Source: Candidatus Hydrothermales bacterium (lineage in GTDB: Bacteria > Hydrothermota > Hydrothermia > Hydrothermales > JAJRUZ01). Taken from it: DNA of 64,000 nt. Position 1 is the first letter of the stretch; each line of letters begins with the position of its first letter. The notes below the pieces were generated by a model that saw nothing but the letters and a program-made list of their open reading frames with translations, had not been told where the DNA came from and searched no databases. The stretch is taken from contig JBCNVI010000007.1 of NCBI GenBank assembly GCA_039630235.1, positions 20,365-84,364 on the forward strand, in the 5' to 3' direction. This document shows, piece by piece, positions 5,712 to 31,896 of this stretch. The position numbers and the translations under genes are program-made.

Positions 5712-7433
5712 ATGAGTTATAATAAAAAGGGGGTGCTTAGTTTACTCTTTGTAGGATTCCTCCTTGCAGGAACAATAAGGCCTACTGTTATGGAACATGT
5801 TATAATTGATCGTGAGGACTTGAAAAATACCTCAGATATTTATCCTTCAGCTCCTCCAGTTTATACAACGATACCAATTAGTTATATAGATACGATGCCT
5901 AATCAGTACTCAACTTTATATACAGCTCCAAAACCAATAAATACATCACCTGATCAATCTTGTGTCTTTTTTACTTATAGAAGATTGTCTGATAACCCAG
6001 CTTATCCAGGAACTGGTCGTTTAGCTCTTGTTTTTTCAAAGGATGGTGGTGCTACTTGGACAAGAATATGGCCATACAACATTGATGGAGCCGGCAGATA
6101 TCCTAACGTAGGTCCCTGGATGGGTAATAGCGATACCTTTATTCTTACATACTCAACAGTGAGAACTCCATTTGAAGGTGCAATCTCTACTGTTCCATCT
6201 GATGGTTCTCTACCTCAAGGAAATATACTAACTTACTTCATTACAACACCTGGATTTGTCGGTTACAGGAGTTTTGGAAACGCTTCAAACGATATGGGAA
6301 ATTATGTTAATTTCCTTGTAGGACAGGATAATAACTATTTCACTCATTGGTGGTGGAGACTTGGATTTGTTGATCCTGATCCACCTGCTCAAATTTTCCC
6401 TGCACATACCCCTGGTGTATGGCTAATGGATTATTGGGATGGAGCACTTGCAGCTCTTGTAGATCCTGAAACTGTTAAAGTTTCTTATGATGATGGCGCT
6501 ACTTGGACTAATATTCCCCTTTACTTTGCTATTCCAATAGATACCTTTAGATTCCAAGGAGTAGATTACATTGTTAATACTCTCTGGTATGTAAATTACT
6601 GGGATTTTGCCCTCTTTAATGCAACAACACCTATGGCTCTTTTAACAACTACATGTAGGTTTACAAATCCTATAGTTTTTGGAGCAGCCGATACTTTTGA
6701 GGCTGGAAATGGTGCGTATATTGTGACACCTACAGCTACTTATACAGTAATAGATCCTGACGAGTTAATCTTCTTTACAAATATTGAGCTTACAATAGAC
6801 CATGTCAGAAATATACTTTTTGTTACATATGTTGCGTATCATACAATTGACCATGTTCCTAATAGGAGGTATGGATGGACTGATATTTATGTAAAATATT
6901 CAACTGATGGAGGAGCTACTTGGTCTGCACCTATTAATATCACTAGAGATGTAAGTAATCAACCAACCGATGATAAGATTGAGCATAAAGTTCATACAAT
7001 AAAACATGTAACTGCTCCTGGTAACTATAATTTATGGCTTTTATTTAATGTGCCAAGAGGATGGGATGGTACTAATGCTGGACTAGATCTTCATTATAAT
7101 GTTTATATAGTTGGTGGTACGGTTCCCACTTATATTTTAACAGGTTATGTTCCTGTGCTTAAGATTTTTGAGAAATCTATGGATAATTTTGCTTCAAGAA
7201 AGCTCACCCTTAATGGAAATGTATTTAACGGAACTATAAAGTTTGTATCCCCTGTGAACGGTAAGATGGCTTTCGATATTTTCGATCTCTCTGGAAGAAG
7301 AATTACATCTAAGACCATCTACGTTAAAGAGGGAAGCAATGAGATAAAGGTGGAAAGCCTCAAATCTGGAATATACTTCCTGAGATATAACGGAGATACA
7401 AAAGGTAATCTGAAACTTGTTGTTACTGAATAA
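5712..7433 (+). CDS. BNR/Asp-box repeat protein (sialidase/glycosidase-like beta-propeller) with a T9SS-type C-terminal sorting domain
   Basis: RBS GGAGG at 5701-5705. Signal peptide present. Three Asp-box repeats S-x-D-x-G-x-T-W (SKDGGATWTRI, SYDDGATWTNI, STDGGATWSAP). C-terminus ..SGIYFLRYNGDTKGNLKLVVTE is CTD-like. Confidence 0.7.
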   Translation: MSYNKKGVLSLLFVGFLLAGTIRPTVMEHVIIDREDLKNTSDIYPSAPPVYTTIPISYIDTMPNQYSTLYTAPKPINTSPDQSCVFFTYRRLSDNPAYPGTGRLALVFSKDGGATWTRIWPYNIDGAGRYPNVGPWMGNSDTFILTYSTVRTPFEGAISTVPSDGSLPQGNILTYFITTPGFVGYRSFGNASNDMGNYVNFLVGQDNNYFTHWWWRLGFVDPDPPAQIFPAHTPGVWLMDYWDGALAALVDPETVKVSYDDGATWTNIPLYFAIPIDTFRFQGVDYIVNTLWYVNYWDFALFNATTPMALLTTTCRFTNPIVFGAADTFEAGNGAYIVTPTATYTVIDPDELIFFTNIELTIDHVRNILFVTYVAYHTIDHVPNRRYGWTDIYVKYSTDGGATWSAPINITRDVSNQPTDDKIEHKVHTIKHVTAPGNYNLWLLFNVPRGWDGTNAGLDLHYNVYIVGGTVPTYILTGYVPVLKIFEKSMDNFASRKLTLNGNVFNGTIKFVSPVNGKMAFDIFDLSGRRITSKTIYVKEGSNEIKVESLKSGIYFLRYNGDTKGNLKLVVTE

Positions 7434-25241: not shown

Positions 25242-26294
25242 GTGAAAAAAATTTTAAAATTTTTTGAATTCTTTCTTGGTAATGAGATTGCGATAGATTT
25301 AGGAACGGCGACGACTTTGATTTATCTAAAAGAAAAGGGAATTGTACTTGATGAACCCTCAGTAGTTGCTGTAGAAAGAGAGTCTGGAAAGGTTATAGCA
25401 GTGGGAAACGAGGCTAAGAAAATGTTAGGTAAAACTCCAGGTGAGATTGTGGCAAAGAGGCCAATGAAAGACGGTGTTATAGCTGATTTTGCTCTAGTTC
25501 AAGAAATGCTTCACTATTTCATTACAAAAGTAACTAAAAAGTCCTTATTTGTACATCCAAAAATTTTAATATGTGTTCCCTCAGGAATAACAGATGTAGA
25601 AATTAGAGCCGTAAGGGATTCAGCAATTCAGGCAGGAGCAAGAGAAGTCTATCTTGTTTCAGAGCCTATAGCTGCAGCAGTTGGAATAGGTCTTCCTATT
25701 TCAGAACCCGTTGGAAACATGGTAATAGATATCGGCGGTGGAACTACTGAAATTGCAGTGATTGCACTAAACGGAATTGTTTCAAGTGTCTCTATACGTG
25801 TTGCTGGTGATGAGTTAGATGAAGCAATTATAGAGTATATTAAAAGGAAGTATAACGTTTTAATAGGGGATCAGACTGCTGAAAGGATTAAGATTGAAAT
25901 TGGGAACTGTTTGCCAATTGGGGATGAAAGGGAGATGGAAGTTAGAGGAAGGGATTTAGTAAGGGGTGTTCCCAGAACAATTAAGATAACTTCACAGGAA
26001 GTGAGGGAAGCTCTAAGAGAACCTCTTGCTCAGATAATAGACTCTACAAAGAAGGCTCTTGATAAGACACCTCCAGAACTTTCCTCAGATATTATAGATA
26101 GAGGTATCTATTTGACAGGAGGTGGAGCTTTACTTAGAAATTTGGATGTTTTGATTCAGGAAGCTACAGGTCTTCCTGTGAGAGTTGCTGATGATCCAAG
26201 GACTTGTGTAGTAAGAGGAGCTGGAAAAATACTTGATAACTTTGAAATGTATGAGAAGGTTCTTTTAAAAGAAAGAAAAAAAATATTTGAGTAA
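25242..26294 (+). CDS. mreB: Rod shape-determining protein MreB
   Basis: Actin-fold motifs IAIDLGTATTLIY, DEPSVVAV, VDIGGGTTEIAV, YLTGGGALLRNLD. GTG start only 15 nt after the rpmC stop. Confidence 0.9.
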   Translation: MKKILKFFEFFLGNEIAIDLGTATTLIYLKEKGIVLDEPSVVAVERESGKVIAVGNEAKKMLGKTPGEIVAKRPMKDGVIADFALVQEMLHYFITKVTKKSLFVHPKILICVPSGITDVEIRAVRDSAIQAGAREVYLVSEPIAAAVGIGLPISEPVGNMVIDIGGGTTEIAVIALNGIVSSVSIRVAGDELDEAIIEYIKRKYNVLIGDQTAERIKIEIGNCLPIGDEREMEVRGRDLVRGVPRTIKITSQEVREALREPLAQIIDSTKKALDKTPPELSSDIIDRGIYLTGGGALLRNLDVLIQEATGLPVRVADDPRTCVVRGAGKILDNFEMYEKVLLKERKKIFE

Positions 26295-26946
26295 ATTACT
26301 TTATTTTTTTCTTTTAATTTTTTTTTCGCTTTTAACATTCAGTAAGAAGGTTAGAGGATTTATTGATGAGAAAATTGAAAGTTATGTTTATTATCCTTAT
26401 TTTTTTGCTTATAATGAAATACATTCTTTTTTTTATATAAGGAGTAAAAAGCTTGAAGGTTTAAAGTTTAAACTGAAAAAGGAGGAGGTTCCTCTCTTTG
26501 TTAGTTTTCCTGTATATTATGATGAATTTCCTTATCCAAAAATTCTAATTTTAAAAGGAGAAGGAAAAAAGGGAGATGTAGTTGTAACTGAAAATGCACT
26601 GGTTGGTAAAGTTATAGAGGTTAAAAAGAACTTTTTAAAGGTTAAAACTGTTTTTAATGAGGAATTTAAGTGTTCTTTAATTTCAAAGTATAATCTTTTA
26701 TCTATTTATCAAGGAACCGGTGGAAGATTTGGAATTGTTAATTTTTATCCCACTTGGGGTGAAATAAAAAAGGGTGATACTTTATATACAAGTGGCATAA
26801 CTGAAAATTTTCCTAAGGGTATCCCTGCCTTTATAGTAGACAGTATAATAAAAAAAAGAAGCGATATCTTTTTTGAGTTATACGTTTCTCCTTTGTGGAA
26901 ACCAGAGAAGTATTGTTTATATTATGTTGTCCCACCTTCACGATGA
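26287..26946 (+). CDS. mreC: Rod shape-determining protein MreC (short form)
   Basis: N-terminal TM. Beta-domain with GDVVVTE..GKV.. and YTSGITENFPKGIPAFIV (MreC GD-VVTSG..FP.GIPVG pattern). Position after mreB. Confidence 0.7.
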   Translation: MSKLLYFFLLIFFSLLTFSKKVRGFIDEKIESYVYYPYFFAYNEIHSFFYIRSKKLEGLKFKLKKEEVPLFVSFPVYYDEFPYPKILILKGEGKKGDVVVTENALVGKVIEVKKNFLKVKTVFNEEFKCSLISKYNLLSIYQGTGGRFGIVNFYPTWGEIKKGDTLYTSGITENFPKGIPAFIVDSIIKKRSDIFFELYVSPLWKPEKYCLYYVVPPSR

Positions 26947-27347
26947 ACAATTTTTTAATTTTTGTTTTTAATCTATCTTTTATACTCCCAGTATCAAAAA
27001 TTTTTTTTCCAGACCTACCCATTGATATATCTTTGATTTTTATGTTTCTTATAGTTGTAAATAATCTAAAACCCTTAAGTTTTTTGTATCTCTTTATTTT
27101 TGGAATTTTCTACGATTATTTTTCAAAGGTTCCTATCACTTTCTTTTTGATAGTAACTTTCATGGTTTATTATTACCTTAAGAATAAACTTAACTTTTCA
27201 CTTTTTGTTTTGAAGATTTTTAGGAATGCCTTTATATTTATCCCTCTCACTCTTGTAAAGGGTTTTTCTTTCTTTTTTCTAACTTTTGTTTTTTTCTCTT
27301 TGATTGAAATTATACCATGGAGGAGAATTTTGGAATTAAAATTTTAA
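26943..27347 (+). CDS. mreD: Rod shape-determining protein MreD-like polytopic membrane protein
   Basis: ATGA overlap with the mreC stop. Very hydrophobic 134-aa protein in canonical mreD position. The track ORF start at 26895 is internal to mreC. Confidence 0.6.
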   Translation: MNNFLIFVFNLSFILPVSKIFFPDLPIDISLIFMFLIVVNNLKPLSFLYLFIFGIFYDYFSKVPITFFLIVTFMVYYYLKNKLNFSLFVLKIFRNAFIFIPLTLVKGFSFFFLTFVFFSLIEIIPWRRILELKF

Positions 27348-28924
27348 AATCCTTTTTAATTCTTTCAGTTCTTTTGTTCTTTCTAAAAATTTTTGATTAT
27401 CAAGTTATAAAAGGAGAATTTTTTGAAAAAAAGGCTATTGAGTTTAAGTCTAAAAAGATAAGGATACCTTCTAAGAGAGGAAAAATTTTAGATAGAAATG
27501 GATTAGAAGTAGCGTATTGGCGCACAGGTTTCAGATTATTAAAAGGCGACTCCTTATATAAAGAGGATGTTCAAATGGAGGAAGTCGTTAAGTATTTAGA
27601 AGATCCAGACTCTTCAAAGATTTTTAATGTCTACGCTTTATTATATAGGTATTATCCCCACGAGAATATTTTTGCTCAAACTATTGGCTACACAGGTCTC
27701 CCTGATAAGATAGAGGTTAAAAGAGGGATTGATCCACTTTTAAGAATAGGGAAAACTGGTTTAGAAAAATTTTATGATGATATTTTAAGAGGTACTGATG
27801 GTTTTAAATTTCTTTTGATGGATGTAAAGGGGAAAATTTATAACAGAGAAACAAGACCCCCACTTGAGCCAATTGACGGTAAAGATATAACTGTTAACCT
27901 TGATATGGAACTTGGAAAATATATAGATTCTATTTTTAAACCTTACGGTAGAGGTGCTTGTGTTGTAATGGAGTCTCAGACAGGTGAAGTTTTAGCGTTA
28001 TATTCAAAACCCTCTTATAATCTAAATTATCTTACGGGAAAAACTGAAAAAGAAGAGCTAGCTAAGGTGGTGAATGATTCTTCTAATCCACTTTTAAATA
28101 GATGTATTCAAGGTTTATACCCACCCGGTAGTATCTTTAAAGTTATCACGGCTTTAATAGCTTTAGAAGAGAATTTAATAGATACAAATAAGGTTATATA
28201 CTGTGAGGGATTCTATAAGTTTGGAAACAGAGTTTTTAAAGATTGGAAAGAGGAGGGTCATGGTTATGTAAATTTTTATAAAGCTATAGAAGTTTCCTGT
28301 GATGTTTATTTTTATGAACTTTCAAAAAGGATTGGCTTAAAGAGATTTTTAGATTACCTGGAGAAGTTAAGTATTTTTGAAAAAACGGGAATTGATCTAT
28401 ATGAGGAAAAAAGGGGATTTAGACCAAATCTTGAGTTTTACACAAGGAAATATGGAAAGTATGGGTTTGGTGAGGGAAATGTTTTAAATCTTGGAATTGG
28501 TCAAGGAGAGATTCTTATGACTCCCTTGCAGTTAGCACTCTTATTTTCTTTGATTGCATGTGAGGGTAAAACAAAAACTCCTCATCTTTTGAAGGATTTA
28601 AAGGTGCAGGAGATCGAATTGCCCTTTAAAAAGGAAAATATAAGAACTTTAAAAAGGGCTCTTTTAAGAGTAGTTCATGGAGAAAATGGGACAGGTAGGT
28701 TAAGTTATGTTGCAGGTTTAAAAATCGGTGGAAAAACAGGAACAGCTCAAAATCCATTTGGTGAGGATCATGCTCAGTTTGCCTGTTTTTTCCCTTTTGA
28801 TAATCCCAGGTTTACAGTTTATGTAATTGTGGAGAATGCAGGTAAAGGTGGTGAGATAGCCGCTCCGATAGCTGGAAGGCTTGTTAGTTGGCTCAATGAA
28901 AGATATATTAAGGGTTCAAAATAG
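27317..28924 (+). CDS. mrdA: Penicillin-binding protein 2 (elongasome transpeptidase)
   Basis: N-terminal TM, PBP dimerisation domain, transpeptidase motifs SIFK (SxxK), SCD (SxN-like), KTGTA. Canonical position between mreD and rodA. Confidence 0.85.
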   Translation: MEENFGIKILKSFLILSVLLFFLKIFDYQVIKGEFFEKKAIEFKSKKIRIPSKRGKILDRNGLEVAYWRTGFRLLKGDSLYKEDVQMEEVVKYLEDPDSSKIFNVYALLYRYYPHENIFAQTIGYTGLPDKIEVKRGIDPLLRIGKTGLEKFYDDILRGTDGFKFLLMDVKGKIYNRETRPPLEPIDGKDITVNLDMELGKYIDSIFKPYGRGACVVMESQTGEVLALYSKPSYNLNYLTGKTEKEELAKVVNDSSNPLLNRCIQGLYPPGSIFKVITALIALEENLIDTNKVIYCEGFYKFGNRVFKDWKEEGHGYVNFYKAIEVSCDVYFYELSKRIGLKRFLDYLEKLSIFEKTGIDLYEEKRGFRPNLEFYTRKYGKYGFGEGNVLNLGIGQGEILMTPLQLALLFSLIACEGKTKTPHLLKDLKVQEIELPFKKENIRTLKRALLRVVHGENGTGRLSYVAGLKIGGKTGTAQNPFGEDHAQFACFFPFDNPRFTVYVIVENAGKGGEIAAPIAGRLVSWLNERYIKGSK

Positions 28925-30083
28925 AATCTTAATAATTTATTTACTTATTTCTTTTTTAGGTATATTAAATATTTTTTCAGTCTCACGTTCTTTTGGAAGT
29001 TATCTTTTTATAAGGCATCTAATTTATTTTGGAATTGGATTTTTTTTATTGATTATTTTTAGCAGAATAAGTATACCGAGGTGGAGAGAGTTTTATTATC
29101 TATTTTTTTTAGCTGGTACTTTTTTACTTCTTCTTGTTCTTATTAAGGAGGAAGGTATTAAAAGGTGGCTTTACATAGGAAATTTTTCCTTTCAGGTTTC
29201 TGATGCAGTTAAGCCCCTTTTTATTTATTTTTATTCTATGAACTGTTCATTTATAAAAAATGGTAATTATTTTAAGTCGTTTAAAACTTTTACTCTTTAC
29301 TTAATTCCCTTTTTTCTGATTTTATTTGAGCCTGATCTTGGTTCTGCCCTTTTTTATCTTTTTCTTTTTGGAGTATATGTTCTTGTTTTGAATTTTACTC
29401 TTGGAGTTAAACTCTTTTTTATATTTTCTTTTCTATCAATGATTTTTTCTTTTAATTTTATTAGTTTCTTTGTTTTTTCTGTTGTGTCGTTTTTATTAGT
29501 TTTTTTAATTAAAAGTTTTAAAGCTTCTGATAGGATTTTACTTTCTCTTGCAATTTTGATGCCGGGTTTAACTGTTCCATTTATATACAACAATGTTTTA
29601 AAGGAGTATCAGAGAAAGAGGCTCAAGTATTTTTTAAATCCGGCGGACGATCCAAAGGGTGCAGGTTGGCAGGTTTTGCAGGGTCAACTTGCTATTGGTT
29701 CAGGTGGTGTTTTTGGTAAAGGTTTTTTAAAGGGTTCTCATAAGTCCCTTGCTTTTTTACCGCAGGCTTATTCTGATTTTGCCTTTGCTTCCTTTGCTGA
29801 GGAGTTTGGTTTCTTGGGTTCCCTCTTTTTGATTTTACTTTACTTTTTTTTACTTATTTCACTTTTAAATTTGAGTAAAGAGAAAGAGGGTTTTGAAACT
29901 TTCTTTATTCTTGGGACTTTTTCCTCTATTTTTTACGCCTTTTTTGTAAATATTGGAGGTGTGTTAGGTCTTTTACCAATAACAGGTATCCCTCTTACAT
30001 TTTTCTCTTATGGTGGAACTAATTTTATCATAAACAGTATTCTTCTTGGAGTTTCGCTTTCTTTTACAAGGAAGTCTTATTAA
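28896..30083 (+). CDS. rodA: Rod shape-determining protein RodA (SEDS family glycosyltransferase)
   Basis: SEDS motifs: DPKGAGWQVLQGQLAIGSGGVFGKGF.., SDFAFASFAEEFGF, C-terminal ..PLTFFSYGGTNFI. Start chosen at ATG 28896 (MKDILRVQNRI..), overlapping the end of mrdA. Confidence 0.85.
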   Translation: MKDILRVQNRILIIYLLISFLGILNIFSVSRSFGSYLFIRHLIYFGIGFFLLIIFSRISIPRWREFYYLFFLAGTFLLLLVLIKEEGIKRWLYIGNFSFQVSDAVKPLFIYFYSMNCSFIKNGNYFKSFKTFTLYLIPFFLILFEPDLGSALFYLFLFGVYVLVLNFTLGVKLFFIFSFLSMIFSFNFISFFVFSVVSFLLVFLIKSFKASDRILLSLAILMPGLTVPFIYNNVLKEYQRKRLKYFLNPADDPKGAGWQVLQGQLAIGSGGVFGKGFLKGSHKSLAFLPQAYSDFAFASFAEEFGFLGSLFLILLYFFLLISLLNLSKEKEGFETFFILGTFSSIFYAFFVNIGGVLGLLPITGIPLTFFSYGGTNFIINSILLGVSLSFTRKSY

Positions 30084-30648
30084 TCTTTTGTAATAAGAAA
30101 GTAGCTAGCTTTTTATCTATGGTAAGTATATGATTTGTAAACCAATTTTTCATAAAATTCATAGTTTCAATGCTAATTCCAAGAAGCCCCTTTTCATGTT
30201 TGTCTAATAATTCTTTAACTTTAGTTTTGAAAAATTCATGAGCATTTTATGTTCCTGAAATTCCTGATATTTATATCTAGTCATTAAATCTTCTTCAGTA
30301 TTAAAATGATATTCTGAGTAGCTTTTAAGTTCATTTAGAATCTCATTAATATAATTTCTTTTCCTTGTTTCATTGCACTATGTAGTTCATTCATAATTTC
30401 AAAAAATCTTTTGTGTTGTTCATCAATTATCTTAACACCTAAGGCATATTTTTCATCCCAATTTATGAAACTCAGTAATGATTATAACTAAAATTTTAAC
30501 TATTTTCAAAACAGATCCTTTTTAAAGCGAGGGTGATAGAGATAATAAATCGTGCTTTGTTCCTAGAATAGTCAAATATTTTCCTTTCTTGTAGTTTTTT
30601 ATGGTTTTAAACTTGGAATTTTTCTTGAATTCTTAAAAGCTTTTTGGG
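30043..30648. repeat. Copy 1 of a diverged tandem duplication (rodA 3' tail + hemerythrin gene + 5' part of dedA). Here rodA's tail is intact but the hemerythrin and dedA segments are degenerate.
   Basis: By eye, 30043-30480 aligns with 30650-31097 at roughly 80% identity, and 30484-30648 aligns with 31120-31432 with two deletions. The rodA stop TAA is at 30081-30083. The junction dedA'|rodA' lies at ~30648/30649. Boundaries are approximate (+/-10 nt). Confidence 0.7.
30078..30474 (-). pseudogene. Hemerythrin-like pseudogene (degenerate paralogue of the gene at 30693..31097)
   Basis: Nucleotide-level alignment to the intact hemerythrin gene shows a 1-nt deletion near 30236 (frameshift), further indels, and the start codon ATG replaced by CTG (plus-strand ..aaactcag.. 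versus ..aagctcat..). No >=60-aa ORF remains on either strand. Confidence 0.65.
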
Positions 30649-31432
30649 ATCCTTTATTCTTTTGGTATTTTGCCTTCTTTTACAAGAGAGTCTTATTGAT
30701 CCGATTTTTGTAACAAAGTAGATAGCTTTTTATCTGTGTTAAGTATATGATTTGTTAGCCAATTTTTCATAAAGTACAAAACCTCAATGCTAATTCCAAG
30801 AAGCCTTTTTTCATGTTTATCTAATACTTCTTTAATTTTAGTTTTGAAAAATTCGTGTTCATCTTTATGTTTCTGAAATTCTTGATAGTTATATCTATTC
30901 ATGAAATTTTCTTCGGTGTTAAAATGATATTCCGAGTAGTTTTTAAGTTCATTTAAAACCTTATCAATGATTTCTTTGCCTTTTCCTTGCCACATTGCGC
31001 TATGTAGTTCATTGAGAATCTCAAAAAATTTCTTATGCTGTTCATCAATTTCCCTTATGCCTATAGCGAATTTTTCATCCCACTTTATAAAGCTCATTTT
31101 GTATATTTTGGAGTATAATAATTATAACAAAAATTTTAGCTTTTTTTTTCAAAGATGTTAAAAAAAATTTTTACTTTTTTTATAGTTATACTATTTATAA
31201 TTTTTGTAGTTTCACTTTTAATTTTGTTATATCCTTACAATAAGGCGAGGGTAATAGAGATAGTAAATCGAGTTGGGGTTTGGGGTCCCCTGCTACTGGT
31301 TTTTTTTCATTCTTTTCAAGTAATAGTTGCACCTTTACCTGGCCACGTATTTCCCTTTCTTATAGGTTTTTTTTATGGTTTTATACCTGGAATTTTTCTT
31401 GCAATTCTTGGGAACTTTTTAGGATCATCCTT
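30649..31432. repeat. Copy 2 of the tandem duplication: a non-coding rodA-tail-like remnant, then the intact hemerythrin gene and the intact 5' part of dedA
   Basis: 30655-30699 (..ttcttttacaagagagtcttattga) mimics the last ~40 nt of rodA (..ttcttttacaaggaagtcttattaa). Boundaries are approximate. Confidence 0.7.
30693..31097 (-). CDS. Hemerythrin-like (bacteriohemerythrin) diiron/O2-binding protein
   Basis: MSFIKWDEKFAIGIREIDEQHKKFFEILNEL..YSEYHFNTEENFM..KHKDEHEFF..: HHE cation-binding motifs (H..E..H / H..D..H pattern) of bacteriohemerythrin. 134 aa. Confidence 0.85.
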   Translation of the reverse strand: MSFIKWDEKFAIGIREIDEQHKKFFEILNELHSAMWQGKGKEIIDKVLNELKNYSEYHFNTEENFMNRYNYQEFQKHKDEHEFFKTKIKEVLDKHEKRLLGISIEVLYFMKNWLTNHILNTDKKLSTLLQKSDQ

Positions 31433-31724
31433 AGGATTTCTTCTCGGTAGAATGGGAGGAAAAAAATTTTTAAAATTAAAAAAATTTGAAAAATTAGAGA
31501 AGTATAAAGAAAAAATAAAATCAAAGAGTTTTCTTTGGCTTTCAATACTTTTTCTACTTCCTTTACCTGGTATACCAAAAGACCTTTTATGTTATTTCGC
31601 CGGATTTATTGGAGTAAGGATAAAAGATTTTATTTTGGCTTTACTTCTTGGTAGACTTCCAGCTGAGATTTTTTGGGTTTTAACAGGAGCTGGGGTTTAT
31701 AGTTTTCTTACTCCCCCCTCCTGA
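31155..31724 (+). CDS. DedA/TVP38/TMEM64-family membrane protein
   Basis: Multi-TM protein with DedA core ..VAPLPGHVFPFLIGFFYGFIPGIFLAILGNFLGSSLGFLLGR.. (G-x3-G-x3-G, re-entrant loop signature). Confidence 0.7.
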   Translation: MLKKIFTFFIVILFIIFVVSLLILLYPYNKARVIEIVNRVGVWGPLLLVFFHSFQVIVAPLPGHVFPFLIGFFYGFIPGIFLAILGNFLGSSLGFLLGRMGGKKFLKLKKFEKLEKYKEKIKSKSFLWLSILFLLPLPGIPKDLLCYFAGFIGVRIKDFILALLLGRLPAEIFWVLTGAGVYSFLTPPS

Positions 31725-31740: not shown

Positions 31741-31860
<120 letters not shown>

Positions 31861-31867
31861 TTATAGT

Positions 31868-31896
31868 ATTATAACTTAACTTTTTGAAAATTTCAA
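31868..31896 (-). promoter_or_regulatory. Consensus sigma70 promoter driving the orphan 5S rRNA (TTGAAA-17-TATAAT)
   Basis: On the minus strand TTGAAA (31891-31896), a 17-nt spacer, then TATAAT (31868-31873). The -10 ends 7 nt upstream of the mature 5S 5' end at 31860. Confidence 0.55.

Follow-up and report, generated by a model that had tools for sequence, protein, structure and literature searches.

Within the window analysed here, a stretch of 64,000 nucleotides from a metagenome-assembled genome (MAG) of a Candidatus Hydrothermales bacterium, an uncultured thermophile, the gene rodA (28881–30083, plus strand) codes for a SEDS glycosyltransferase (Pfam FTSW_RODA_SPOVE, 1.5e-64) and is the last gene of an mreB-mreC-(mreD)-PBP2-rodA cluster. 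MreB, MreC, and PBP2 were recognized upstream by their Pfam matches, and the open reading frame at the position of mreD (26895–27347) has no Pfam match. Downstream of this elongasome cluster a unit of ∼0.8 kb, comprising the 3′ end of rodA, a hemerythrin gene on the minus strand, and the 5′ part of dedA, is duplicated head to tail. As delimited by self-alignments and by a three-way alignment with a related genome, copy 1 (30038–30654, 617 nt) consists of the functional rodA tail, a dead hemerythrin gene, and a degraded dedA head, and copy 2 (30655 to approximately 31428, ∼774 nt) consists of a remnant of the rodA tail, an intact hemerythrin gene, an intergenic region, and the functional dedA head. 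The two copies are adjacent, co-linear, and in direct orientation, with no spacer between them.

Copy 1 begins with the final ∼46 nt of rodA (30038–30083), which include the working stop codon, and the corresponding rodA-tail remnant of copy 2 (30655–30699) is non-coding. The hemerythrin gene of copy 2 (30693–31097, minus strand) is an intact open reading frame for a bacteriohemerythrin, an oxygen-binding protein, of 134 aa, whose match to PF01814 (3.3e-15) spans profile positions 2–125 of 127 and which is 100% identical to the NCBI entry ‘MAG: bacteriohemerythrin [Candidatus Hydrothermales bacterium]’. In the alignments it shows H21, H58, E62, H77, H81, H117, and D122, which are assigned as the seven diiron ligands of the family. 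The dedA gene (31155–31724, plus strand) is likewise intact and codes for a VTT/DedA family membrane protein of 189 aa (PF09335, 6e-22, profile positions 1–122 of 123), a putative lipid-carrier flippase; its codons 1 to ∼91 fall within the duplicated unit. In the initial annotation the real rodA stop had been assigned to copy 1 and the intact hemerythrin and dedA genes to copy 2, and both assignments hold; the sequence quoted there for the rodA-tail remnant of copy 2 is correct as well.

The similarity of the two copies is far above background. A blastn comparison aligns 30038–30474 with 30655–31096 at 81.8% identity over 446 columns (E 1e-120) and, as a second segment, 30577–30651 with 31348–31426 at 83.5% over 79 columns, and a gapped local self-alignment pairs 30038–30661 with 30655–31442. 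The local alignment score of copy 1 against copy 2 is 606, compared with 59±9 (maximum 90) for 200 shuffles of copy 1 and with at most 83.5 for other segments of the window; no further copy was found elsewhere in these 64 kb. In a repeat search the direct-repeat blocks, which are 79–94% identical, have a start-to-start spacing of 616–622 nt across the rodA tail and the hemerythrin gene, and this spacing widens to 640–774 nt beyond the hemerythrin gene. Thus, the two adjacent copies that had been described earlier, with an identity of ∼80% judged by eye, are significantly similar at 82%, and every element of the description is present within a few bases of where it had been placed. The copies are identical over 22 nt at most, in a stretch that is mostly conserved in the related genome too, which rules out a recent gene conversion between them. 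With such a short shared run a collapse of the duplication should be rare, as homologous recombination is expected rarely to collapse a duplication that lacks long identical runs. An origin as a mobile element or MITE was also considered and rejected, as the ends of the unit have no terminal inverted repeats and no transposase is present.

A single joint connects the distal end of one unit (dedA codon ∼91) to the proximal end of the next (rodA, ∼46 nt before the stop codon). In a comparison of the joint with the parental sequences of both the window and the relative, dedA-derived sequence ending in CTTTTTGGGATCC abuts rodA-derived sequence beginning with TATTCTTTTGGTATTTTGCC at 30650–30656. 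The proposed novel joint of dedA' and rodA' is thereby supported in the assembled sequence, and its position is shifted from ∼30648 to ∼30650–30656. No mobile-element or foreign sequence was seen at the joint. The relative has CTTTTAGGA near the breakpoint at both parental sites, which is suggestive of a possible microhomology; a simple crossover in CTTTTAGGA would not give the joint as it stands now, and later divergence blurs its position at the level of single bases.

The relative (L001), a Candidatus Hydrothermales MAG as well, is the sole close relative found in a scan of species-representative genomes. It has the gene order PBP2-rodA-hemerythrin(minus strand)-dedA-5S with each gene in single copy, so that the single-copy ancestral arrangement that had been suggested for related genomes is indeed found there. 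RodA and DedA of both genomes are each 83% identical in amino acid sequence, and the RodA proteins (400 and 404 aa) end in the same C-terminus SLSFTRKSY. Outside of these two MAGs the hemerythrin has only distant matches: the protein database holds no near match beyond the source MAG and the relative, the next one being 41% identical, a scan of JGI metagenomes returned no hemerythrin above 46% and no contig with rodA or dedA beside a hemerythrin gene, and an exact-sequence look-up with the intact hemerythrin gene gave no contig on record.

Turning to the dead hemerythrin gene of copy 1 (30064–30475, minus strand), three-frame translation and alignment reveal at least five independent lesions. 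A CTG replaces the ATG start codon (30475–30473), a first frameshift with a net loss of 4 nt lies around codons 40–43 (near 30346–30371), a second one of −1 nt lies at codon 79 (30245/30246), a 4-nt deletion at 30085/30086 alters the C-terminal tail, and the stretch of 5′ leader that separates the −10 box from the start is shortened by 18 nt. Since TGATCCGATTTTTG at the rodA stop codon and hemerythrin C-terminus is common to copy 2 and the relative, the 4-nt deletion of copy 1 is derived. We also considered whether the 18-nt deletion had removed a GGAG ribosome-binding site, and this was ruled out, as the GGAG is on the opposite strand. The initial annotation had reported the CTG and one frameshift; the CTG stands, and there are two frameshifts instead of a single one. 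No open reading frame in the pseudogene region is longer than 32 aa. Nevertheless, the family membership of the pseudogene is still evident, as tblastn aligns segments of it with the intact copy at 72–75% identity (E 9e-31), its frame-corrected translation matches PF01814 at 2e-14, and all seven diiron ligands are kept in the conceptual translation. Upstream of the pseudogene a promoter-like site (30481–30509, minus strand; TTGAAA-17-TATAAT) has 11 of 12 consensus matches, which is a consensus match in a region where the total number of such sites is not above chance.

By alignment, the dedA' fragment of copy 1 (30511–30654, plus strand) derives from the 5′-terminal ∼274 nt of dedA. Five deletions (12+66+53+3+1 nt) have removed 135 nt, close to the ∼130 nt noted before, and the fragment is left without start codon and without most of the N-terminal hydrophobic stretch; it contains no plus-strand open reading frame of at least 30 aa. 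In addition, no terminator was predicted between rodA and the hemerythrin gene, and the region 30084–30692 has no Rfam match at gathering thresholds to an RNA gene.

The age of the event can be estimated from the changes in the hemerythrin coding sequence. With ancestral states inferred by parsimony and the relative as the single outgroup, 395 sites carry 32 lineage-specific changes in copy 1, 32 in copy 2, and 33 in the gene of the relative. The three sequences are thus equidistant, which places the duplication at about the time when the only two genomes sampled diverged. The duplication had been called old, and this agrees with copies that differ from each other as much as each differs from the orthologue. 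When the trio is rooted with distant hemerythrins, just 4, 3, and 1 informative sites are available, and the duplication may have preceded or followed the split.

Taken together, the history which we regard as highly probable as a whole is an ancient tandem duplication followed by decay of the dedA' and rodA' pieces and by retention and later loss of one hemerythrin gene. An unequal or illegitimate recombination between short similar motifs at the end of rodA and inside dedA would have produced the joint at ∼30650–30656. After the duplication the locus held one full rodA gene, ending in the tail of copy 1, one full dedA gene, beginning with the head of copy 2, and two full hemerythrin genes, and the dedA' fragment of copy 1 and the rodA' fragment of copy 2 were useless from their origin. 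The dedA' fragment decayed freely, with five deletions, a lost start, and no synonymous excess among its substitutions. The hemerythrin gene of copy 1, on the other hand, appears to have been maintained by purifying selection over a considerable period, as judged from a synonymous excess on its own branch, from its conserved metal ligands, and from the promoter-like site that is still present, and would have been inactivated later by the loss of start codon and leader and by the two frameshifts.

The main competing explanation, which we consider unlikely, is that the hemerythrin gene of copy 1 was non-functional at or soon after the duplication and has decayed neutrally ever since. Its many lesions in start codon, leader, reading frame, and C-terminus would fit such a history, as does the number of lineage-specific changes, in which copy 1 does not fall below copy 2. 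We count 15 synonymous and 15 non-synonymous changes in the branch leading to copy 1, whereas a spectrum-matched neutral expectation predicts 7.4±2.2 synonymous ones among these 30 (P=0.0015); an estimate of the NG86 type gives an omega of ∼0.2 (binomial P=2e-5). Under the identical test the truly dead dedA' fragment has 0 of 13 lineage-specific substitutions synonymous, and for the functional dedA head the synonymous share is 5/7 in copy 2 and 4/5 in the relative. The persistence of all seven metal ligands also argues against early death, and as the entire hemerythrin gene and its upstream region lie inside the unit, nothing disabling was present at birth. The synonymous to non-synonymous ratios of copy 1 and copy 2 do not differ significantly (Fisher P=0.19). 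From the synonymous excess we conclude that the extra hemerythrin probably worked for long before it died, and the number of its lesions points to a neutral phase that was fairly long, too. The earlier statement that the duplication ‘generated’ a pseudogene is therefore right about the dead copy and probably not about the time of its death, and the phrase ‘gene birth and death’ of the same annotation suits the history of a working paralogue that later died better.

A further, improbable alternative is that the copies diverged before they were joined. Illegitimate recombination, which might have followed an uptake of DNA, would in this case have placed a captured homologous segment of a related lineage beside the resident segment. 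The divergence of ∼17% would then overstate the age of the rearrangement, and both the equidistance of the three sequences and the few informative sites for their rooting are compatible with it. The dS between the window and the relative, which is somewhat lower inside the unit (0.51–0.52) than in the flanks (0.72–1.07), could hint at an exchange, but this contrast is based on only ∼66 synonymous sites. Moreover, capture requires two rare events, where a duplication in place requires one. The joint matches exactly an unequal exchange in place, and foreign or mobile sequence is missing from it.

Two other explanations question the sequence itself. That an assembler joined two strain variants of one locus has very little probability. 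Although joint and indels are taken from the assembly of a MAG, variants with 17% divergence and numerous indels are not co-assembled in head-to-tail order, and the sequence at the joint is chimeric and specific. In addition, the decay tracks function: redundant fragments are degraded, and the changes in the needed rodA tail and dedA head, both of which are conserved, are mainly synonymous. The adjacent genes are intact and of the same or nearly the same length as in the relative, which implies that sequence errors of the indel type are rare in this assembly. Least probable of all is that the hemerythrin of copy 1 is still functional and that its apparent lesions are due to errors in sequencing or are overcome by recoding: the −1 frameshift does lie in an A run (AAAAA in the relative, AAAA in copy 1), where length errors are typical, and the signature of purifying selection and the strong promoter-like site are retained, but the five independent lesions are of differing kinds, including the change of ATG to CTG and the leader deletion, the complex net change of −4 nt is not a homopolymer error, and no further gene nearby is broken. 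An intact open reading frame, which would have contradicted the initial annotation, was not found in the hemerythrin of copy 1.

The promoter-like site, now 5 nt from the former hemerythrin start, allows for a more speculative idea, namely that the extra hemerythrin was long selected and that its dead copy is still active, with the putative promoter at 30509–30481 driving a non-coding transcript that converges on the 3′ end of rodA. We regard this as improbable; if true, the dead copy would exert a regulatory effect on the elongasome operon.

Tandem segmental duplications in bacteria, which arise when short repeats recombine unequally or illegitimately, are usually unstable unless selected; they are reportedly treated in the duplication-amplification literature, for example, by Andersson and Hughes and by Reams and Roth. 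The locus resembles them in its adjacent direct copies without spacer, its single novel joint, its boundary genes, each of which is present as an intact and a truncated copy, and the single-copy arrangement in a relative. Most described tandem duplications are recent, have nearly identical copies, and often span tens of kb, whereas the unit described here is smaller than 1 kb and its copies have an identity of ∼82%. Therefore, it is a fixed ancient remnant and not a transient amplification.

Single-domain bacteriohemerythrins of PF01814 often occur in several copies per genome. The intact protein is typical of them with its 134 aa, its full-length profile match, and its H-HxxxE-HxxxH-HxxxxD ligand pattern, although the closest hemerythrins outside the two MAGs are 41–46% identical. 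Tandem hemerythrin genes are found in several unrelated metagenome contigs, with up to four consecutive genes in one of them (L040); unlike these, one of the two copies is a pseudogene here. With its multiple disabling lesions and residual synonymous excess it is similar to post-functional (unitary-type) pseudogenes, whereas dedA' and rodA' resemble dead-on-arrival pieces, and having both pseudogene classes side by side provides an internal control.

The mechanism is ordinary, a real but commonplace gene duplication with decay, which changes no general view and opens no long-standing question. For the annotation of this poorly sampled thermophilic lineage it is of use that the seemingly non-coding gap of 610 bp after rodA consists of a pseudogene and a gene fragment, and not of a regulatory region or an RNA gene. 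More generally, the locus is a self-controlled example of the long-term fates of duplicated sequence, in which the boundary fragments decayed from their origin on, the fully duplicated gene was probably kept for some time and then lost, and the essential flanking genes rodA and dedA each retain one intact end.

The cell-elongation gene cluster of the window, in which Pfam searches identified MreB (25242–26294), MreC (26287–26946), PBP2 (27317–28924) and RodA (28881–30083), is followed at its end by a duplicated region. Between mreC and the PBP2 gene, in the position of mreD, lies an open reading frame of 150 aa (26895–27347, plus strand) without a Pfam match at E ≤ 0.001. The 610 nt downstream of RodA (30084–30692) are free of any sizeable open reading frame in an ORF scan and are followed by an intact hemerythrin gene of 134 aa on the minus strand (30693–31097, PF01814), an intact dedA gene of 189 aa with a VTT domain (31155–31724) and, directly after dedA, a 5S rRNA gene on the minus strand (31742–31858).

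By a repeat search of the window we found a chain of co-linear direct-repeat blocks with identities of 79–94% and a start-to-start spacing of 616–622 nt across the rodA tail and hemerythrin and of 640–774 nt across the intergenic and dedA part. A single gapped local alignment (30038–30661 versus 30655–31442) unites these blocks; its score of 606 compares with 59±9 in 200 shuffles and with at most 83.5 for other window segments. In blastn the rodA-tail and hemerythrin part is 81.8% identical over 446 columns (E 1e-120) and the end of the dedA part 83.5% over 79 columns. These results are in agreement with the initial annotation, which had placed the two copies accurately and had estimated their identity by eye at roughly 80%; the tandem duplication is real and was read correctly, with the refinements described here. 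No further copy of the duplicated unit is present elsewhere within the 64-kb window.

Copy 1 (30038–30654) starts ∼46 nt upstream of the functional rodA stop and contains, according to the alignment with the intact copy, a dead hemerythrin gene (30064–30475, minus strand). Its start codon ATG is replaced by CTG, and 18 nt are deleted from its leader, leaving the former start just 5 nt downstream of the TATAAT box. In addition, there is a complex change with a net loss of 4 nt at codons 40–43, a −1 change within an A run at codon 79 and, immediately ahead of the stop, a 4-nt deletion that changes the C-terminal tail. Once the frame is corrected, the translation is still recognised by PF01814 (2e-14), and all seven metal-ligand positions are present in it. 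The dedA fragment of copy 1 (dedA′, 30511–30654, aligned to intact dedA) has no open reading frame; its start codon is among the 12+66+53+3+1 nt that are missing, 135 nt where ∼130 nt had been estimated. Copy 2 (30655 to ∼31428) comprises a non-coding rodA-tail remnant (rodA′), in which even the stop codon TGA is retained, followed by the intact hemerythrin gene and the functional dedA head. At ∼30650–30656, dedA′ and rodA′ meet in the joint.

Searching with RodA among species-representative genomes, we found one close relative, the Candidatus Hydrothermales MAG L001 (RodA identity 83%); neither the protein database nor the JGI metagenomes yielded additional relatives. The order of both organisms is now named Caldifarciminales in the NCBI taxonomy, and the NCBI proteins of another of its MAGs include one that matches the intact hemerythrin at 100% identity. 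In L001 the gene order is PBP2-rodA-hemerythrin(−)-dedA-5S with every gene in single copy, the ancestral arrangement that the initial annotation had proposed to look for in related genomes. CTTTTAGGA occurs near the breakpoints at both parental sites of L001, but the joint of the window has since diverged too far for the crossover point to be placed.

In a three-way alignment of 395 hemerythrin sites, copy 1, copy 2 and L001 have 32, 32 and 33 private changes, each pair being ∼83% identical. As the three sequences are equally diverged, the duplication and the split of the two sampled genomes are of roughly the same age; when distant hemerythrins are used as the root, the 4, 3 and 1 informative sites do not decide which came first. 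If the duplication predates the split, L001 must have reverted to a single copy by collapse. Such a collapse is easy while tandem repeats are still similar; in the window it should now be rare by homologous recombination, since the longest identical run between the copies is 22 nt. Comparing the window (27317–31724) with L001 (3434–7281), dS is lower within the duplicated unit (hemerythrin of copy 2 0.52, dedA head 0.51) than in the flanking RodA (0.72), dedA remainder (0.81) and PBP2 (1.07), which may be noise given the small samples of ∼66 synonymous sites each.

Substitutions were placed on branches by parsimony, and synonymous counts were compared with a neutral expectation matched to the mutation spectrum of each branch. 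On the branch of the dead hemerythrin 15 of 30 changes are synonymous (neutral 7.4±2.2, P=0.0015; omega ∼0.2 by simple site count), on that of the intact hemerythrin 9 of 29 (neutral 6.3, P=0.15) and on that of L001 13 of 35 (neutral 9.1, P=0.08). The bias of parsimony runs against the excess in copy 1, as fast synonymous sites are more often dropped as multiple hits. For the dedA head, an internal control, the pattern is the expected one: most changes are synonymous in the functional copies (5/7 in copy 2, neutral 1.7, P=0.009; 4/5 in L001, neutral 1.3, P=0.018) but not in the dead fragment (0/13, neutral 2.8, P=1.0). Of the private changes of the intact hemerythrin, 20 are non-synonymous and 9 synonymous; its protein sequence has evolved rapidly since the two copies arose. 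At codon 36 (30990–30992) copy 1 and L001 both have AAA (Lys), whereas on the branch of copy 2 all three bases were replaced, giving TGG (Trp).

The substitution pattern on the copy 1 branch disfavours the possibility that this hemerythrin was dead on arrival. That its lesions are sequencing errors is unlikely, as the five lesions differ in kind and the neighbouring genes are intact. That a segment which had already diverged was captured from a relative would require more events and, with three sequences compared, is the less likely reading. Misassembly is very unlikely in view of the specific joint, the 17% divergence of the copies and a decay pattern that tracks function. The most economical reading of the sequences is that the duplication yielded a second, complete hemerythrin gene which selection maintained through much of its history before it was lost, and that dedA′ and rodA′ were useless from the outset.

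The 5S rRNA gene is preceded, ∼10 nt upstream, by a promoter-like site matching 11 of 12 consensus positions (TTGAAA-17-TATAAT, 31896..31868). This stretch and those of both hemerythrin copies (30481–30509 and 31121–31149) are 76–79% identical over 29 nt, probably a mere reflection of the common promoter consensus and an AT-rich spacer. No 16S or 23S rRNA was detected in the 64-kb window and L001 holds, by eye, a nearly identical 5S sequence in the same position after dedA (∼7296–7412); the 5S gene thus appears to be unlinked from the remaining rRNA operon in this lineage. In both genomes (window 25242–31724, L001 3434–7281) dedA follows mreB-mreC-PBP2-rodA with only hemerythrin in between. 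This linkage may be functional, because DedA-family proteins have been reported to be undecaprenyl-phosphate flippases that recycle the lipid carrier of peptidoglycan (PMC9876793, PMC10127716).

Two to four tandem hemerythrin genes are also found in unrelated metagenome contigs (L006, L008, L010, L019, L022, L040, L066 and L067); L040 has four, and in L019 the second match lies in two pieces and may be another broken copy. Since such arrays are common in contigs unrelated to the window, additional members of this family are often tolerated or useful. Mechanistically, the locus is an ordinary case of tandem duplication with subsequent differential decay, in a lineage that is rarely sampled. Tandem duplications are lost quickly unless they are under selection, and thus an initial advantage of two hemerythrin genes would account for the fixation of this one.
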